NCBI RefSeq assembly: GCF_057098645.1
Contig: NZ_CM169472.1
Direction: 5' to 3' (one strand)
DNA length: 64,000 nt
The notes beneath the pieces are model-generated. The model worked only from the letters and a program-made list of their open reading frames with translations, had not been told where the DNA came from and ran no database searches. The position numbers and the translations under genes are program-made. This document shows, piece after piece, positions 15,301 through 35,541 of the stretch; within the stretch, counting starts at the first letter, position 1; every line of letters begins with the position of its first letter.

Positions 15301-15431
15301 TTTATCAGACAATCTGTGTGGGCACTCGAAGATACGGATTCTTAACGTCGCAAGACGAAAAATGAATACCAAGTCTCAAGAGTGAACACGTAATTCATTA
15401 CGAAGTTTAATTCTTTGAGCATCAAACTTTT

Positions 15432-16973
<1,542 letters not shown>

Positions 16974-17058
16974 CCTTAAAGAAGCGTTCTTTGAAGTGCT
17001 CACACAGATTGTCTGATAGAAAGTGAAAAGCAAGGCGTCTTGCGAAGCAGACTGATAC

Positions 17059-17134
17059 GTCCCCTTCGTCTAGAGGCCCAGGACACCGCCCTTTCACGGC
17101 GGTAACAGGGGTTCGAATCCCCTAGGGGACGCCA
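17059..17134 (+). tRNA. gltU: tRNA-Glu (anticodon UUC) in the 16S-23S spacer
   Basis: GTCCCCTTCGTCTAGAGG ... GGGGACGCCA, anticodon loop reads TTC. Confidence 0.95.
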
Positions 17135-17327
17135 CTTGCTGGTTTGTGAGTGAAAGTCACCTGCCTTAATATCTCAAAACTCATCTTCGGGTGATGTTTG
17201 AGATATTTGCTCTTTAAAAATCTGGATCAAGCTGAAAATTGAAACACTGAACAACGAGAGTTGTTCGTGAGTCTCTCAAATTTTCGCAACACGATGATGA
17301 ATCGCAAGAAACATCTTCGGGTTGTGA

Positions 17328-20232
<2,905 letters not shown>

Positions 20233-20324
20233 ACAACGCCGAAGCTGTTTTGGCGGATGAGAGAAGATTTTTAGCCTGATACAGATTAAATCAGAACGCA
20301 GAAGCGGTCTGATAAAACGGAATT

Positions 20325-20444
20325 TGCCTGGCGGCCGTAGCGCGGTGGTCCCACCTGACCCCATGCCGAACTCAGAAGTGAAACGCCGTAGCGCCGATGG
20401 TAGTGTGGGGTCTCCCCATGCGAGAGTAGGGAACTGCCAGGCAT
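20325..20444 (+). rRNA. rrfC: 5S ribosomal RNA
   Basis: TGCCTGGCGGCCGTAGCGCGGTGG ... GGGAACTGCCAGGCAT; 120 nt. Confidence 0.97.
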
Positions 20445-23593: not shown

Positions 23594-23946
23594 AAGCCCT
23601 CCTTGAGTCACCATTATGTGCATAAGATATCGCTGCTGTAGCCCGCTAATTCGTGAATTTTAGTGGCTGATTCCTGTTTATTTGTGCAAGTGAAGTTGAG
23701 TTGTTCTGGCGGTGGAATGATGCTCGCAAAAATGCAGCGGACAAAGGATGAACTACGAGGAAGGGAACAACATTTATACTGAAATTGAATTTTTTTTCAC
23801 TCACTATTTTCTTTTTAAAAAACAACAATTTCTATTGAAATTATTAAAGCCATCATAAAAATCGGCCAAAAAATATCTTGTGCTATTCGCAAAATCTATG
23901 GTAACTCTTTAGGCATTCCTTCGAACAAGATGCAAGAAAAGACAAA

Positions 23947-24045
23947 ATGACAGCCCTTCTACGAGTGATTAGTCTGGTCGTGATTAGCGTGGTGGTGATT
24001 ATTATCCCACCGTGCGGGGCTGCACTTGGACGAGGAAAGGCTTAG
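23947..24045 (+). CDS. ilvL: ilv operon leader peptide
   Basis: 32-aa peptide MTALLRVISLVVISVVVIIIPPCGAALGRGKA, dense in Leu/Val/Ile codons. Confidence 0.95.
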   Translation: MTALLRVISLVVISVVVIIIPPCGAALGRGKA

Positions 24046-24067
24046 AGATCAAGCCTTAACGAACTAA

Positions 24068-24101
24068 GACCCCCGCACCGAAAGGTCCGGGGGTTTTTTT
24101 T
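24068..24101 (+). terminator. ilv attenuator (leader terminator)
   Basis: GC-rich hairpin (cccccgcacc-gaaa-ggtccggggg) followed by T8, directly after the ilvL stop. Confidence 0.85.
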
Positions 24102-24131
24102 GACCTTAAAAACATAACCGAGGAGCAGACA

Positions 24132-24182
24132 ATGAATAACAGCACAAAATTCTGTTTCTCAAGATTCAGGACGGGGAACTAA
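24132..24182 (+). CDS. ilvX: small protein IlvX (16 aa)
   Basis: [19 protein letters not shown] preceded by AGGAG Shine-Dalgarno, between the attenuator and ilvG. Confidence 0.6.
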
Positions 24183-24184
24183 CT

Positions 24185-25831
24185 ATGAATGGCGCACAGT
24201 GGGTGGTACATGCGTTGCGGGCACAGGGTGTGAACACCGTTTTCGGTTATCCGGGTGGCGCAATTATGCCGGTTTACGATGCATTGTATGACGGCGGCGT
24301 GGAGCACTTGCTGTGCCGACATGAGCAGGGTGCGGCAATGGCGGCTATCGGTTATGCCCGTGCTACCGGCAAAACTGGCGTATGTATCGCCACGTCTGGT
24401 CCGGGCGCAACCAACCTGATAACCGGGCTTGCGGACGCACTGTTAGATTCTATCCCTGTTGTTGCCATCACCGGTCAAGTGTCCGCACCGTTTATCGGCA
24501 CTGACGCATTTCAGGAAGTGGATGTCCTGGGATTGTCGTTAGCCTGTACTAAGCACAGCTTCCTGGTGCAGTCGCTGGAAGAGTTGCCGCGCATCATGGC
24601 TGAAGCATTCGACGTTGCCAGCTCAGGTCGTCCTGGTCCGGTTCTGGTCGATATCCCAAAAGATATCCAGTTAGCCAGCGGCGACCTGGAACCGTGGTTC
24701 ACCACCGTTGAAAACGAAGTGACTTTCCCATATGCCGAAGTTGAGCAAGCGCGCCAGATGCTGGCAAAAGCGCAAAAACCGATGCTGTACGTTGGTGGTG
24801 GCGTGGGTATGGCGCAGGCAGTTCCTGCTTTACGAGAATTTCTCGCTACCACAAAAATGCCTGCCACCTGCACGCTGAAAGGGCTGGGCGCAGTTGAAGC
24901 AGATTATCCGTACTATCTGGGCATGCTGGGAATGCATGGCACCAAAGCGGCGAACTTCGCGGTGCAGGAGTGCGACTTGCTGATCGCCGTGGGTGCACGT
25001 TTTGATGACCGGGTGACCGGCAAACTGAACACCTTCGCACCACACGCCAGTGTTATCCATATGGATATCGACCCGGCAGAAATGAACAAGCTGCGTCAGG
25101 CACATGTGGCATTACAAGGTGATTTAAATGCTCTGTTACCAGCATTACAGCAGCCGTTAAATATCAATGACTGGCAGCTACACTGCACGCAGCTGCGTGA
25201 TGAACATGCCTGGCGTTACGACCATCCCGGTGACGCTATCTACGCGCCGTTGTTGTTAAAACAACTGTCGGATCGTAAACCTGCGGATTGCGTCGTGACC
25301 ACAGATGTGGGGCAGCACCAGATGTGGGCTGCGCAGCACATCGCCCACACTCGCCCGGAAAATTTCATCACCTCCAGCGGCTTAGGTACCATGGGTTTTG
25401 GTTTACCGGCGGCGGTTGGCGCACAAGTCGCGCGACCGAACGATACCGTTGTCTGTATCTCCGGTGACGGCTCTTTCATGATGAATGTGCAAGAGCTGGG
25501 CACCGTAAAACGCAAGCAGTTACCGTTGAAAATCGTCTTACTCGATAACCAACGGTTAGGGATGGTTCGACAATGGCAGCAACTGTTTTTCCAGGAACGA
25601 TACAGCGAAACCACCCTTACCGATAACCCCGATTTCCTCAAGTTAGCCAGCGCCTTCGGCATCCCTGGCCAACACATCACCCGTAAAGACCAGGTTGAAG
25701 CGGCACTCGACACCATGCTGAACAGTAATGGGCCATACCTGCTTCATGTCTCAATCGACGAACTTGAGAACGTCTGGCCGCTGGTGCCGCCTGGTGCCAG
25801 TAATTCAGAAATGTTGGAGAAATTATCATGA
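24185..25831 (+). CDS. ilvG: acetolactate synthase II large subunit, intact reading frame
   Basis: Uninterrupted 548-aa ORF with thiamine-diphosphate enzyme motifs; K-12 carries a frameshift in this gene. Confidence 0.93.
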
Positions 25832-26091
25832 TGCAACATCAGGTCAATGTATCGGCTCGCTTCAATCCGGAAACCTTAGAACGTGTTTTACGCGTGGTGC
25901 GTCATCGTGGTTTCCACGTCTGCTCAATGAATATGGCCGCCGCCAGCGATGCACAAAATATAAATATCGAATTGACCGTTGCCAGCCCACGGTCGGTCGA
26001 CTTACTGTTTAGTCAGTTAAATAAACTGGTGGACGTCGCACACGTTGCCATCTGCCAGAGCACAACCACATCACAACAAATCCGCGCCTGA
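25828..26091 (+). CDS. ilvM: acetolactate synthase II small subunit
   Basis: 87 aa; start overlaps the ilvG stop by 4 bp (ATGA). Confidence 0.93.
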
Positions 26092-26110: not shown

Positions 26111-27040
26111 ATGACCACGAAGAAAGCTGATTACATTTGGTTCAATGGGGAGATGGTTCGCTGGGAAGACGCGAAGGTGCATGTGATGTCGCACGCGCTG
26201 CACTATGGCACCTCGGTTTTTGAAGGCATCCGTTGCTACGACTCGCACAAAGGACCGGTTGTATTCCGCCATCGTGAGCATATGCAGCGTCTGCATGACT
26301 CCGCCAAAATCTATCGCTTCCCGGTTTCGCAGAGCATTGATGAGCTGATGGAAGCTTGTCGTGACGTGATCCGCAAAAACAATCTCACCAGCGCCTATAT
26401 CCGTCCGCTGATCTTCGTCGGTGATGTTGGTATGGGCGTTAACCCGTCAGCGGGATACTCAACCGATGTGATTATCGCCGCTTTCCCGTGGGGAGCGTAT
26501 CTGGGCGCAGAAGCGCTGGAGCAGGGGATCGATGCGATGGTTTCCTCCTGGAACCGTGCAGCACCAAACACCATCCCAACCGCGGCGAAAGCCGGTGGTA
26601 ACTATCTCTCTTCCCTGCTGGTGGGTAGTGAAGCGCGCCGCCACGGTTATCAGGAAGGTATCGCGCTGGATGTGAATGGCTACATCTCTGAAGGTGCAGG
26701 CGAAAACCTGTTTGAAGTGAAAGACGGCGTGCTGTTCACCCCACCGTTCACCTCCTCAGCGCTGCCGGGTATTACCCGTGATGCCATCATCAAACTGGCG
26801 AAAGAGCTGGGAATTGAAGTGCGTGAGCAGGTGCTGTCGCGCGAATCACTGTACCTGGCGGATGAAGTGTTTATGTCTGGGACAGCGGCAGAAATCACGC
26901 CAGTGCGCAGCGTAGACGGTATTCAGGTTGGCGAAGGCCGTTGTGGTCCGGTCACCAAACGCATCCAGCAAGCCTTCTTCGGCCTCTTCACCGGCGAAAC
27001 CGAAGATAAATGGGGCTGGTTAGATCAAGTTAATCAATAA
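26111..27040 (+). CDS. ilvE: branched-chain amino acid aminotransferase
   Basis: Start at MTTKKADYIWFNGEM, 309 aa. Confidence 0.95.
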   Translation: MTTKKADYIWFNGEMVRWEDAKVHVMSHALHYGTSVFEGIRCYDSHKGPVVFRHREHMQRLHDSAKIYRFPVSQSIDELMEACRDVIRKNNLTSAYIRPLIFVGDVGMGVNPSAGYSTDVIIAAFPWGAYLGAEALEQGIDAMVSSWNRAAPNTIPTAAKAGGNYLSSLLVGSEARRHGYQEGIALDVNGYISEGAGENLFEVKDGVLFTPPFTSSALPGITRDAIIKLAKELGIEVREQVLSRESLYLADEVFMSGTAAEITPVRSVDGIQVGEGRCGPVTKRIQQAFFGLFTGETEDKWGWLDQVNQ

Positions 27041-27104: not shown

Positions 27105-28955
27105 ATGCCTAAGTACCGTTCCGCCACCACCACTCATGGTCGTAATATGGCGGGTGCTCGTGCGCTGTGGCGCGCCACCGGAATGACCGACGCCGATTTC
27201 GGTAAGCCGATTATCGCGGTTGTGAACTCGTTCACCCAATTTGTACCGGGTCACGTCCATCTGCGCGATCTCGGTAAACTGGTCGCCGAACAAATTGAAG
27301 CGGCTGGTGGTGTTGCCAAAGAGTTCAACACCATTGCGGTGGATGATGGGATTGCCATGGGACACGGGGGGATGCTTTATTCACTGCCATCTCGCGAACT
27401 GATCGCTGATTCCGTTGAGTATATGGTCAACGCCCACTGCGCCGACGCCATGGTCTGCATCTCTAACTGTGACAAAATCACCCCGGGGATGCTGATGGCC
27501 TCTCTGCGTCTGAATATTCCGGTGATCTTTGTTTCCGGCGGCCCGATGGAGGCCGGGAAAACCAAACTGTCCGATCAGATCATCAAGCTCGATCTGGTTG
27601 ATGCGATGATCCAGGGGGCAGACCCGAAAGTTTCTGACTCCCAGAGCGATCAGGTTGAACGTTCCGCATGCCCAACCTGCGGTTCCTGCTCCGGGATGTT
27701 TACCGCTAACTCAATGAACTGCCTGACCGAAGCGCTGGGTCTGTCGCAGCCGGGCAACGGCTCGCTGCTGGCAACCCACTCTGACCGTAAGCAGCTGTTC
27801 CTCAATGCTGGTAAACGCATTGTTGAATTGACCAAACGTTACTACGAGCAAAACGACGAAAGTGCACTGCCCCGCAATATTGCTAGCAAAGCGGCGTTTG
27901 AAAATGCCATGACGCTGGATATCGCGATGGGTGGATCGACTAACACCGTTCTTCACCTGCTGGCGGCGGCGCAGGAAGCGGAAATCGACTTCACCATGAG
28001 TGATATCGACAAACTTTCGCGTAAAGTCCCGCAGTTATGCAAAGTTGCGCCGAGCACCCAAAAATACCATATGGAAGATGTTCACCGTGCTGGTGGTGTT
28101 ATCGGTATTCTCGGCGAACTGGATCGCGCTAACTTACTGAATCGCGATGTGAAAAACGTACTTGGCCTGACGTTGCCGCAAACGCTGGAACAATACGACG
28201 TTATGCTGACCCAGGATGACGCGGTAAAAAATATGTTCCGCGCAGGCCCTGCAGGCATTCGTACCACACAGGCATTCTCGCAGGATTGCCGCTGGGATAC
28301 GCTGGACGACGATCGCGCAAATGGCTGTATTCGCTCGCTGGAACACGCCTACAGCAAAGACGGTGGCCTGGCGGTGCTCTACGGAAATTTCGCGGAAAAC
28401 GGCTGCATCGTTAAAACCGCGGGCGTCGATGACAGCATCCTCAAATTCACCGGCCCGGCGAAAGTATACGAAAGCCAGGACGATGCGGTAGAAGCGATTC
28501 TCGGCGGTAAAGTTGTCGCGGGCGATGTGGTTGTTATCCGCTACGAAGGCCCGAAAGGCGGTCCGGGGATGCAGGAAATGCTCTACCCAACCAGTTTCCT
28601 GAAATCAATGGGTCTCGGTAAAGCCTGTGCGCTGATCACCGACGGTCGTTTCTCCGGCGGTACCTCTGGTCTTTCCATCGGTCACGTTTCACCGGAAGCG
28701 GCAAGCGGCGGCAGCATTGGCCTGATTGAAGACGGCGACCTGATCGCCATCGACATTCCGAACCGTGGCATTCAGTTACAGGTAAGCGATGCCGAACTGG
28801 CGGCGCGTCGTGAAGCGCAGGAAGCTCGGGGTGACAAAGCCTGGACGCCGAAAAATCGTGAACGTCAGGTCTCCTTTGCCCTGCGTGCTTATGCCAGCCT
28901 GGCAACCAGCGCCGACAAAGGCGCGGTGCGCGATAAATCGAAACTGGGGGGTTAA
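27105..28955 (+). CDS. ilvD: dihydroxy-acid dehydratase
   Basis: 616 aa, protein recognised. Confidence 0.96.
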
Positions 28956-28957
28956 TA

Positions 28958-30502
28958 ATGGCTGACTCACAACCCCTGTCCGGTGCCCCGGAAGGTGCCG
29001 AATATTTAAGAGCGGTGCTACGCGCACCGGTCTACGAGGCGGCGCAGGTTACGCCGCTACAAAAAATGGAAAAGCTCTCGTCTCGTCTTGATAACGTGAT
29101 TCTGGTGAAACGCGAAGATCGCCAGCCAGTGCACAGCTTTAAGCTGCGCGGCGCATACGCCATGATGGCGGGCCTGACGGAAGAACAAAAAGCGCACGGC
29201 GTGATCACTGCTTCTGCGGGTAACCACGCGCAGGGCGTCGCGTTTTCTTCTGCGCGGTTAGGCGTGAAGGCCCTGATCGTTATGCCAACCGCCACCGCCG
29301 ACATCAAAGTCGACGCGGTGCGCGGCTTCGGCGGCGAAGTGCTGCTCCACGGCGCGAACTTTGATGAAGCGAAAGCCAAAGCGATCGAACTGTCACAGCA
29401 GCAGGGCTTCACCTGGGTGCCGCCGTTCGACCATCCGATGGTGATTGCCGGGCAAGGCACGCTGGCGCTGGAACTGCTCCAGCAGGATGCTCATCTCGAC
29501 CGCGTATTTGTGCCAGTCGGCGGCGGCGGTCTGGCTGCTGGCGTGTCGGTGCTGATCAAACAACTGATGCCGCAAATCAAAGTGATCGCCGTAGAAGCGG
29601 AAGACTCCGCCTGCCTGAAAGCAGCGCTGGATGCGGGTCATCCGGTTGATCTGCCACGCGTGGGACTGTTCGCCGAAGGTGTCGCGGTAAAACGCATCGG
29701 CGACGAAACCTTCCGTTTATGCCAGGAGTATCTCGACGACATCATCACCGTCGATAGTGATGCGATCTGTGCGGCGATGAAGGATTTATTCGAAGATGTG
29801 CGCGCAGTGGCGGAACCCTCTGGCGCGTTGGCGCTGGCGGGAATGAAAAAATATATCGCTCAGCACAACATTCGCGGCGAACGCCTGGCGCATATTCTTT
29901 CCGGTGCTAACGTGAACTTTCACGGCTTGCGCTACGTCTCGGAACGCTGCGAACTGGGCGAACAGCGTGAAGCGTTGCTGGCGGTCACCATCCCGGAAGA
30001 AAAAGGCAGCTTCCTCAAATTCTGCCAGCTGCTTGGCGGGCGCTCGGTCACCGAGTTCAACTACCGTTTTGCCGATGCCAAAAACGCCTGCATCTTTGTC
30101 GGCGTGCGCCTGAGCCGCGGCCTCGAAGAGCGCAAAGAAATTTTAAAGATGCTCAACGACGGCGGCTACAGCGTGGTTGATCTCTCCGACGACGAAATGG
30201 CGAAGTTGCATGTGCGCTATATGGTCGGCGGGCGTCCGTCACATCCGTTGCAGGAACGCCTCTACAGCTTCGAATTCCCGGAATCACCGGGCGCGCTGCT
30301 GCGCTTCCTCAACACGCTGGGTACGCACTGGAACATTTCTTTATTCCACTATCGCAGCCATGGCACCGACTACGGGCGCGTACTGGCGGCGTTCGAACTT
30401 GGCGACCATGAACCGGATTTCGAAACCCGGCTGAATGAACTGGGCTACGATTGCCACGACGAAACCAATAATCCGGCGTTCAGGTTCTTTTTGGCGGGTT
30501 AA
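28958..30502 (+). CDS. ilvA: biosynthetic threonine deaminase
   Basis: 514 aa, protein recognised. Confidence 0.96.
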   Translation: MADSQPLSGAPEGAEYLRAVLRAPVYEAAQVTPLQKMEKLSSRLDNVILVKREDRQPVHSFKLRGAYAMMAGLTEEQKAHGVITASAGNHAQGVAFSSARLGVKALIVMPTATADIKVDAVRGFGGEVLLHGANFDEAKAKAIELSQQQGFTWVPPFDHPMVIAGQGTLALELLQQDAHLDRVFVPVGGGGLAAGVSVLIKQLMPQIKVIAVEAEDSACLKAALDAGHPVDLPRVGLFAEGVAVKRIGDETFRLCQEYLDDIITVDSDAICAAMKDLFEDVRAVAEPSGALALAGMKKYIAQHNIRGERLAHILSGANVNFHGLRYVSERCELGEQREALLAVTIPEEKGSFLKFCQLLGGRSVTEFNYRFADAKNACIFVGVRLSRGLEERKEILKMLNDGGYSVVDLSDDEMAKLHVRYMVGGRPSHPLQERLYSFEFPESPGALLRFLNTLGTHWNISLFHYRSHGTDYGRVLAAFELGDHEPDFETRLNELGYDCHDETNNPAFRFFLAG

Positions 30503-33539: not shown

Positions 33540-33989
33540 TCAATTTATGAGCGATATGGCATTGATTGACTTGATGACCGCCCTCTGTATGTCTGCAACC
33601 AACTCATGTGGCAAACATTGATTAAGATACCCTCTGTAAGTTCTTGCTCTGTTTAATCTGTTTCGACTGACTTGTTGTACCAGGTCGGCTTTGGCCCAAC
33701 GAATCTGCTGATCAAAGAATTGCAGGTCATTGATAATATTACTGGCTATTTCAACATGCATTCCACGATTTAACTTGTCATGGTCGCGAGTGGTTGATAA
33801 TGGAACGACGATACATGCGTTGCCATTAATTTTTCCGTTGAGCACGACAACTAACCTGTTTTTTATCATTTCAGGAGGAATGCGGCCATCGTAATACGTG
33901 GTGCTGAACGGTCCATTTTGGCTAACAGGATAGTTACCAAAGTTGCATTCCAGTATTTCACCAACCTTAGGGCTGAAATTAATCGCCAC
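33540..33989 (-). CDS. yifN: PemK/MazF-like toxin-fold protein (yifN-like), 149 aa
   Basis: Start proposed at a GTG preceded by the strong Shine-Dalgarno AAGGAGAG; N-terminal GEILECNFG, then RLVVVLNG and IVVPLSTT, resemble the PemK/MazF fold; the longer 212-aa track ORF reads into the IS2 end. Confidence 0.6.
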
Positions 33990-34134
33990 GAGTAAACCTC
34001 TCCTTAGTAAACTCTGAAAAAGTAATAACACAACGTTACGACCTAGACTGGCCCCCTGAATCTCCAGACAACCAGTATCACTTAAATAAGTGATAGTCTT
34101 AATACTAGTTTTTAGACTAGTCATTGGAGAACAG

Positions 34135-34500
34135 ATGATTGATGTCTTAGGGCCGGAGAAACGCAGACGGCGTACCACACAGGAAAAGATCGCAATTGTT
34201 CAGCAGAGCTTTGAACCGGGGATGACGGTCTCCCTCGTTGCCCGGCAACATGGTGTAGCAGCCAGCCAGTTATTTCTCTGGCGTAAGCAATACCAGGAAG
34301 GAAGTCTTACTGCTGTGGCCGCCGGAGAACAGGTTGTTCCTGCCTCTGAACTTGCTGCCGCCATGAAGCAGATTAAAGAACTCCAGCGCCTGCTCGGCAA
34401 GAAAACGATGGAAAATGAACTCCTCAAAGAAGCCGTTGAATATGGACGGGCAAAAAAGTGGATAGCGCACGCGCCCTTATTGCCCGGGGATGGGGAGTAA
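34135..34500 (+). CDS. insC: IS2 OrfA (InsC), transposition regulator
   Basis: 121 aa starting [14 protein letters not shown]; helix-turn-helix protein. Confidence 0.93.
34452..34458 (+). other. A6G slippery heptamer, programmed -1 frameshift site joining insC to insD
   Basis: AAAAAAG near the end of insC; the insD frame is -1 relative to insC and overlaps it. Confidence 0.75.
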
Positions 34501-35363
34501 GCTTAGTCAGCCGTTGTCTCCGGGTGTCGCGTGCGCAGTTGCACGTCATTCTCAGACGAACCGATGACTGGATGGATGGCCGCCGCAGTCGTCACACTGA
34601 TGATACGGATGTGCTTCTCCGTATACACCATGTTATCGGAGAGCTGCCCACGTATGGTTATCGTCGGGTATGGGCGCTGCTTCGCAGACAGGCAGAACTT
34701 GATGGTATGCCTGCGATCAATGCCAAACGTGTTTACCGGATCATGCGCCAGAATGCGCTGTTGCTTGAGCGAAAACCTGCTGTACCGCCATCGAAACGGG
34801 CACATACAGGCAGAGTGGCCGTGAAAGAAAGCAATCAGCGATGGTGCTCTGACGGGTTCGAGTTCTGCTGTGATAACGGAGAGAGACTGCGTGTCACGTT
34901 CGCGCTGGACTGCTGTGATCGTGAGGCACTGCACTGGGCGGTGACTACCGGCGGCTTCAACAGTGAAACAGTACAGGACGTCATGCTGGGAGCGGTGGAA
35001 CGCCGCTTCGGCAACGATCTTCCGTCGTCTCCAGTGGAGTGGCTGACGGATAATGGTTCATGCTACCGGGCTAATGAAACACGCCAGTTCGCCCGGATGT
35101 TGGGACTTGAACCGAAGAACACGGCGGTGCGGAGTCCGGAGAGTAACGGAATAGCAGAGAGCTTCGTGAAAACGATAAAGCGTGACTACATCAGTATCAT
35201 GCCCAAACCAGACGGGTTAACGGCAGCAAAGAACCTTGCAGAGGCGTTCGAGCATTATAACGAATGGCATCCGCATAGTGCGCTGGGTTATCGCTCGCCA
35301 CGGGAATATCTGCGGCAGCGGGCTTGTAATGGGTTAAGTGATAACAGATGTCTGGAAATATAG
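34458..35363 (+). CDS. insD: IS2 OrfB (InsD), DDE transposase catalytic part
   Basis: 301-aa ORF in the -1 frame, recognised as IS3-family integrase; probably expressed as an OrfAB fusion. Confidence 0.9.
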
Positions 35364-35541
35364 GGGCAAATCCACGACCCGATATTTTCTAAGTCTAATG
35401 GATTCACGATGAACTCCGATTTCGGTCTTCTCTCTCTGATTTAAACATCCGCAGCCAACCGGTTAGCGGCTTACACGCGGTCACATTCAAATGCGATTCT
35501 GCTACAATCCTCCCCCCGTTCGAAGATTGAGCAATACACCT

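Follow-up and report, generated by a model that had tools for sequence, protein, structure and literature searches.

[quoted passage not shown] In MG1655, this frameshift brings about a premature UGA; when one base of the respective TGA is deleted, the frame is open again and the cells can grow at 1 mg/ml valine (PMC8605374). The lesion is also described there, with reference to Parekh & Hatfield 1997, as polar on the downstream genes of ilvGMEDA. Another isozyme of E. coli, AHAS I, is valine-sensitive (PMC8605374).

Outside K-12, an intact ilvG is described for B strains (PMC3446290) as well as for W, B and Crooks (PMC3032704). The ilvG of CFT073 is functional, and AHAS II is the isozyme that this strain requires to grow in urine; repair of the frameshift in MG1655 rescues growth (bioRxiv 10.1101/2025.10.31.685768). 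Both the K-12 frameshift and the intact ilvG of non-K-12 strains are already textbook knowledge.

In the following, we describe the ilvG gene in a 64,000-nucleotide stretch of DNA, referred to as the window, and compare it with these alleles. We are close to certain that it represents an ordinary, ancestral and functional ilvG allele in a non-K-12 E. coli, whose nearest relatives are Shiga-toxin-producing strains (STEC) of type O145:H28; its activity, the valine resistance it should confer and its non-polarity are deduced from the literature cited above.

The ilvG gene and its product

The gene occupies positions 24185-25831 of the plus strand. In the list of open reading frames, it is a frame of 548 codons that runs from ATG to TGA, and its translation contains a terminal stop alone. 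The chance of a frame of 548 codons staying open is (61/64)^548, or about 4e-12, so that the open ilvG frame lies far beyond chance. At its 3' end, which reads ...AAATTATCATGATGCAA..., the TGA of ilvG (25829-25831) and the ATG of ilvM (25828-25830) are joined in a 4-bp ATGA overlap (25828-25831). The first-pass annotation of this DNA had proposed an intact frame of 548 codons from the ATG at 24185, with a stop codon that shares bases with the start of ilvM, and both proposals are borne out by the frame, its translation with one terminal stop and the ATGA.

The encoded protein belongs to the AHAS II family. With the NCBIfam equivalog NF006524 ('acetolactate synthase 2 catalytic subunit'), it scores 1071.3 bits (cutoff 738), and the match runs end to end, with residues 1-547 of the protein aligned to positions 1-547 of the 548 in the profile. 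The NCBIfam equivalogs for AHAS III and for the generic large subunit stayed below their own cutoffs for IlvG, those for AHAS III by a wide margin, with the general TIGR00118 as the exception. In NCBIfam, IlvG is thus scored as AHAS II and as neither AHAS I nor AHAS III. Furthermore, it exhibits the three-domain architecture of ThDP enzymes, since the Pfam domains TPP_enzyme_N/M/C (PF02776, residues 1-115; PF00205, residues 186-321; PF02775, residues 374-522) are all found far over their gathering scores. The NF006524 score and these three domains confirm the identity as AHAS II large subunit that had been assigned to the gene from the sequence alone.

Several motifs are present in the protein: RHEQGA at residues 45-50, the motif with the catalytic Glu; GDG...DN at residues 427-455, the motif that binds ThDP and Mg2+; and a further segment at residues 399-410. 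The nearest solved structure by sequence is 6lpi, the large subunit of E. coli AHAS I (IlvB), to which residues 2-544 of IlvG can be aligned with E = 1e-160; plant and yeast AHAS rank next. Both RHEQGA and the motif at 427-455 are conserved in this alignment. IlvB and IlvG share their fold family and their chemistry, but they represent different isozymes, AHAS I and AHAS II, respectively. By homology, and judging from K-12 strains with a restored frame, the product of the window ilvG is predicted to be a valine-insensitive acetolactate / acetohydroxybutyrate synthase.

The ilv operon and allelic variation

The gene sits in a complete ilvL-ilvX-ilvG-ilvM-ilvE-ilvD-ilvA operon on the plus strand, behind a leader-peptide attenuator. 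The first of these genes, ilvL (23947-24045), encodes a leader peptide of 32 residues that is rich in Ile, Val and Leu. IlvL matches NCBIfam NF007744 over its full length (81.9 bits, cutoff 59), and the annotation of the O145:H28 strain RM13514 puts ilvL at coordinates identical to those in the window. It is followed by the hairpin CCCCCGCACCGAAAGGUCCGGGGG (24069-24100, plus strand) and a U8 run, which, given the established regulation of ilvGMEDA, we take to be the attenuator terminator. In an RNA fold of positions 23947-24105, with a minimum free energy of -62.2 kcal/mol (z = -4.37), this GC-rich hairpin appears at the end, together with the U run. A simple terminator scan of the plus strand did not report the ilv attenuator, which the RNA fold shows clearly, and we take this miss as a limit of the scan pattern. 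The leader region (23876-24165) also matches the Rfam family RF02744 with 158.8 bits (gathering score 88). This family bears the name 'Soft rot Enterobacteriaceae Rev 39 5'UTR', which is apparently a different name for the ilvL leader.

Between the attenuator and ilvG lies ilvX (24132-24182), an ORF for a peptide of 16 residues that ends 2 nt ahead of the ilvG ATG and is annotated both in RM13514 (WP_001387183.1) and in K-12. Directly 3' of ilvG, ilvM (25828-26091) encodes the cognate small (regulatory) subunit of AHAS II. The 87-residue protein matches NF008362 with 133.9 bits (cutoff 68) and contains the Pfam domain ACT_5. The remaining genes, ilvE (26111-27040), ilvD (27105-28955) and ilvA (28958-30502), are open and have identical coordinates in the annotation of RM13514.

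Upstream of ilvL, two homopolymers differ in length between the window and its relatives. The run at 23783-23790 is T8 in the window and T7 in both RM13514 and K-12, whereas that at 23863-23868 is A6 in the window and in K-12 and A5 in RM13514. Either difference could be promoter-region variation or a sequencing error.

For comparison, we extracted five wild ilvG alleles, all of which are open over 1647 bp. Among other wild and industrial E. coli (B, W, Crooks, CFT073, APEC O2:K1:H7), ilvG is, like that of the window, an open frame of 1647 bp for 548 amino acids that overlaps with ilvM. The sampled alleles differ by 51-79 nucleotides and 9-15 amino acids. Many alleles of the B2 type feature the substitution N328D, which adjoins the site of the K-12 lesion. 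Conversely, five residues of the window IlvG, namely Y183, L332, T335, K486 and N515, are absent from the five other alleles compared. In the alignment with 6lpi, all five are found at positions that differ between AHAS II and AHAS I, so that no conserved position is affected.

These residues bear on the question of whether the open frame also yields a working enzyme, as lineage-specific missense mutations or an altered promoter region could leave it inactive or unexpressed. The five residues that are unique among the six alleles compared would fit this scenario, as would the T8/T7 and A6/A5 differences from RM13514. However, IlvG scores far over the NF006524 cutoff over its full length, its catalytic and cofactor motifs are intact, and AHAS I and AHAS II differ from each other at the variant positions. 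Moreover, the identical coding sequence has been retained in 26 independent genomes, and the A6 run is shared with K-12. We therefore regard an open but inactive or unexpressed ilvG as extremely unlikely. It is likewise very unlikely that the five residues, together with the T8/A6 configuration upstream, alter the kinetics of AHAS II, its herbicide or valine response, or its expression in the O145:H28 lineage.

Comparison with K-12 and the origin of the window

In the MG1655 genome (NC_000913.3), ilvG (b4488) is annotated as a pseudogene of 1645 bp. Locus and flanking genes are as in the window, with a nucleotide identity of about 98% between the two ilvG copies, and the products of ilvL, ilvX and ilvM are identical. 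When the two ilvG sequences are aligned globally, K-12 has one gap of 2 bp, which faces positions 25161-25162 of the window. The two bases at these positions, AT on the plus strand, are missing from K-12 and hold the frame open. Owing to a local AT/TA repeat, the gap can be placed inside AAATATCAATGA only to within one or two bases.

The junction accordingly reads TTAAATATCAATGA in the window, where AT corresponds to 25161-25162, and TTAAATCAATGA in K-12. Without the 2 bp, the K-12 frame stops at an in-frame TGA after codon 327, and 658 nt up to ilvM are left untranslated. A 2-bp deletion of this type, recognizable by the junction TTAAATCAATGA, was not found in the window ilvG, which reads through. 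The frameshift that the first-pass annotation had attributed to K-12 is hence located in the alignment and visible in the pseudogene of NC_000913.3, in agreement with the literature (PMC8605374). [quoted passage not shown]

An open frame alone would also be seen in a K-12 derivative in which ilvG has been repaired, be it as a spontaneous revertant of the ilvO type or by engineering. Such strains exist. Evolved MG1655 lines regain the ilvG frame via 1-bp deletions (PMC8605374), and the databases include FELIX_MS508 (NZ_CP148116.1), which the K-12 junction probe (see below) matched at 92%. At its ilvG locus (547-2193), this strain features an open frame of 548 codons on a K-12 backbone, with a 2-bp AT insertion and four adjacent, recoding substitutions. 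It is otherwise identical to the K-12 ilvG, and the repair was apparently engineered. In BH212 and THB42-F4, two genomes with the K-12 junction, ilvG does not differ from that of MG1655 at any position.

The window looks different. Besides the 2 bp, its ilvG is separated from that of MG1655 by 33 substitutions (2%), 9 of which are amino-acid differences once the K-12 gene is repaired in silico. The K-12 backbone is therefore absent outside the lesion as well, and the window ilvG is no repaired K-12 allele. Its relatives are found elsewhere: the segment from ilvL to ilvM (2201 bp) is 100% identical in 26 genomes, nearly all of them labelled as O145 or O145:H28 STEC and with an ilvG that is annotated as intact, and the next-best genomes follow at 99.5%. 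RM13514 is identical to the window over ilvL-ilvX-ilvG-ilvM, with the same operon layout, and its ilvG (WP_001012635.1) is annotated at the same coordinates as in the window. In a blastn comparison of the whole window, the two sequences are 99.9% identical, with 46 small differences and one extra segment of 1331 bp in the window; no differences to RM13514 were detected inside ilvG. For a 25-kb stretch free of insertion sequences, 40 records reach at least 99%, the best of which are O145:H28 strains, and among the matches listed, all belong to the O145:H28 lineage or its close kin; a strictly identical record for this stretch was not found.

Given the 33 substitutions and the identity to O145:H28 sequences, the source of the window can be identified from its sequence as closely related to the O145:H28 lineage, and a K-12 derivative it is not. 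A repaired K-12 strain is scarcely conceivable as the source, and we reject this explanation. The first-pass annotation had left the choice between a non-K-12 and an ilvG-restored source; it is settled in favor of the former by the 33 substitutions, the 100% identity from ilvL to ilvM and the 99.9% identity to RM13514. We also reject the notion that an error of assembly or sequencing masks a real frameshift in ilvG, which is next to impossible. Long-read errors can show up as differences in homopolymer length, and the window has a few of these in comparison with its closest relative. However, the 2 bp at 25161-25162 lie outside any homopolymer, ilvG has zero differences from RM13514, and independent assemblies of 26 genomes contain the same 2201 bp.

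The extra segment of 1331 bp is a complete copy of IS2 (34044-35374, plus strand), with orfA at 34090-34500 and orfB at 34458-35363. It is flanked by a 5-bp target duplication, CGACC, and located in the intergenic region between a gene for a PemK/MazF-like toxin (33540-33989, minus strand) and rep. This copy is missing from RM13514, and the genome collection holds no 100% match to the stretch 34044-35374, the best match being 99.2%. Laboratory strains of the W3110-P type also have an IS2 nearby, but at another site than the window, namely within the toxin gene. Furthermore, seven clustered differences from the corresponding RM13514 copy, including two 1-bp indels, are found at 16433-16469, in the 16S rRNA gene of an rrn operon (approximately 15430-20440). 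This cluster looks like heterogeneity between rrn copies or gene conversion.

The state of ilvG across E. coli and its meaning

To place this allele within the species, we searched 5,426 complete E. coli genomes with short junction probes, which seed a 28-mer on the matching allele alone. The K-12 junction was detected in 343 genomes (6.3%), the intact junction of the window type in 3,495, and an intact junction with the adjacent N328D polymorphism in 1,237. The longest exact word common to the two intact probes measures 27 bases, so that their counts do not overlap, and the intact junction is consequently present in at least 4,732 genomes (at least 87% of the 5,426). About 350 genomes are left unclassified by the three junction probes, which makes all these figures lower bounds; presumably, further polymorphisms block the 28-mer seeding in these genomes.

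Among the matches listed, the genomes with the K-12 junction are overwhelmingly laboratory derivatives of K-12, with sizes of 4.5-4.76 Mb. They include MG1655, W3110, DH10B, BW25113, JM109, XL1-Blue, EPI300 and MC4100, but also O16:H48 mouse-colonisation isolates and transconjugant recipients. In two such genomes that are labelled with a host, ilvG is identical to that of MG1655, and one of them is explicitly a transconjugant. The K-12 junction thus appears to be confined to K-12-derived strains, which makes it a reliable lineage marker.

We also used a probe of 131 bp. In a 40-row spread of its matches, the full-length hits span 131 bp, which is the intact length, save for three laboratory strains of the K-12 type at 129 bp and for NCCP12480, which has a deletion from ilvG to ilvA. 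The locus of NCCP12480 (NZ_CP068680.1, 2086-4319) represents an ilvG lesion of a non-K-12 type, in which ilvG breaks off after 954 nt (318 codons) and is fused to the 3' part of ilvA, with the loss of ilvM, ilvE and ilvD. One further ilvG match is located on a record classed as a plasmid and features the N328D-type intact junction.

Within E. coli, ilvG is usually intact, and the broken K-12 copy is the exception, a point that the first-pass annotation had missed. Given that it is the norm of the species, the intact gene in the window shows only that its source is not K-12.

For an ordinary, functional allele in a close relative of O145:H28 STEC, the expected course of events is straightforward. 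The ilvL leader and the attenuator would control the transcription of the ilv operon, and the translation of ilvG would run to the stop that overlaps the ilvM start, an arrangement through which the two subunits of AHAS II would be made together. The enzyme should then condense pyruvate with a second pyruvate or with 2-ketobutyrate, free of feedback inhibition by valine, and the strain should for this reason grow in the presence of valine. We infer, on good grounds, that the source strain is valine-resistant. Likewise, ribosomes would cover the whole of ilvG, so that the Rho-dependent polarity on ilvMEDA that is seen in K-12 should not arise. That ilvMEDA is spared frameshift polarity may reasonably be inferred from Parekh & Hatfield 1997, as cited in PMC8605374.

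Beyond bookkeeping, the intact ilvG matters little: it marks the window as not originating from a K-12 laboratory strain. For the physiology of the organism, it predicts valine-resistant growth and a normal expression of ilvMEDA, without the polarity known from K-12.
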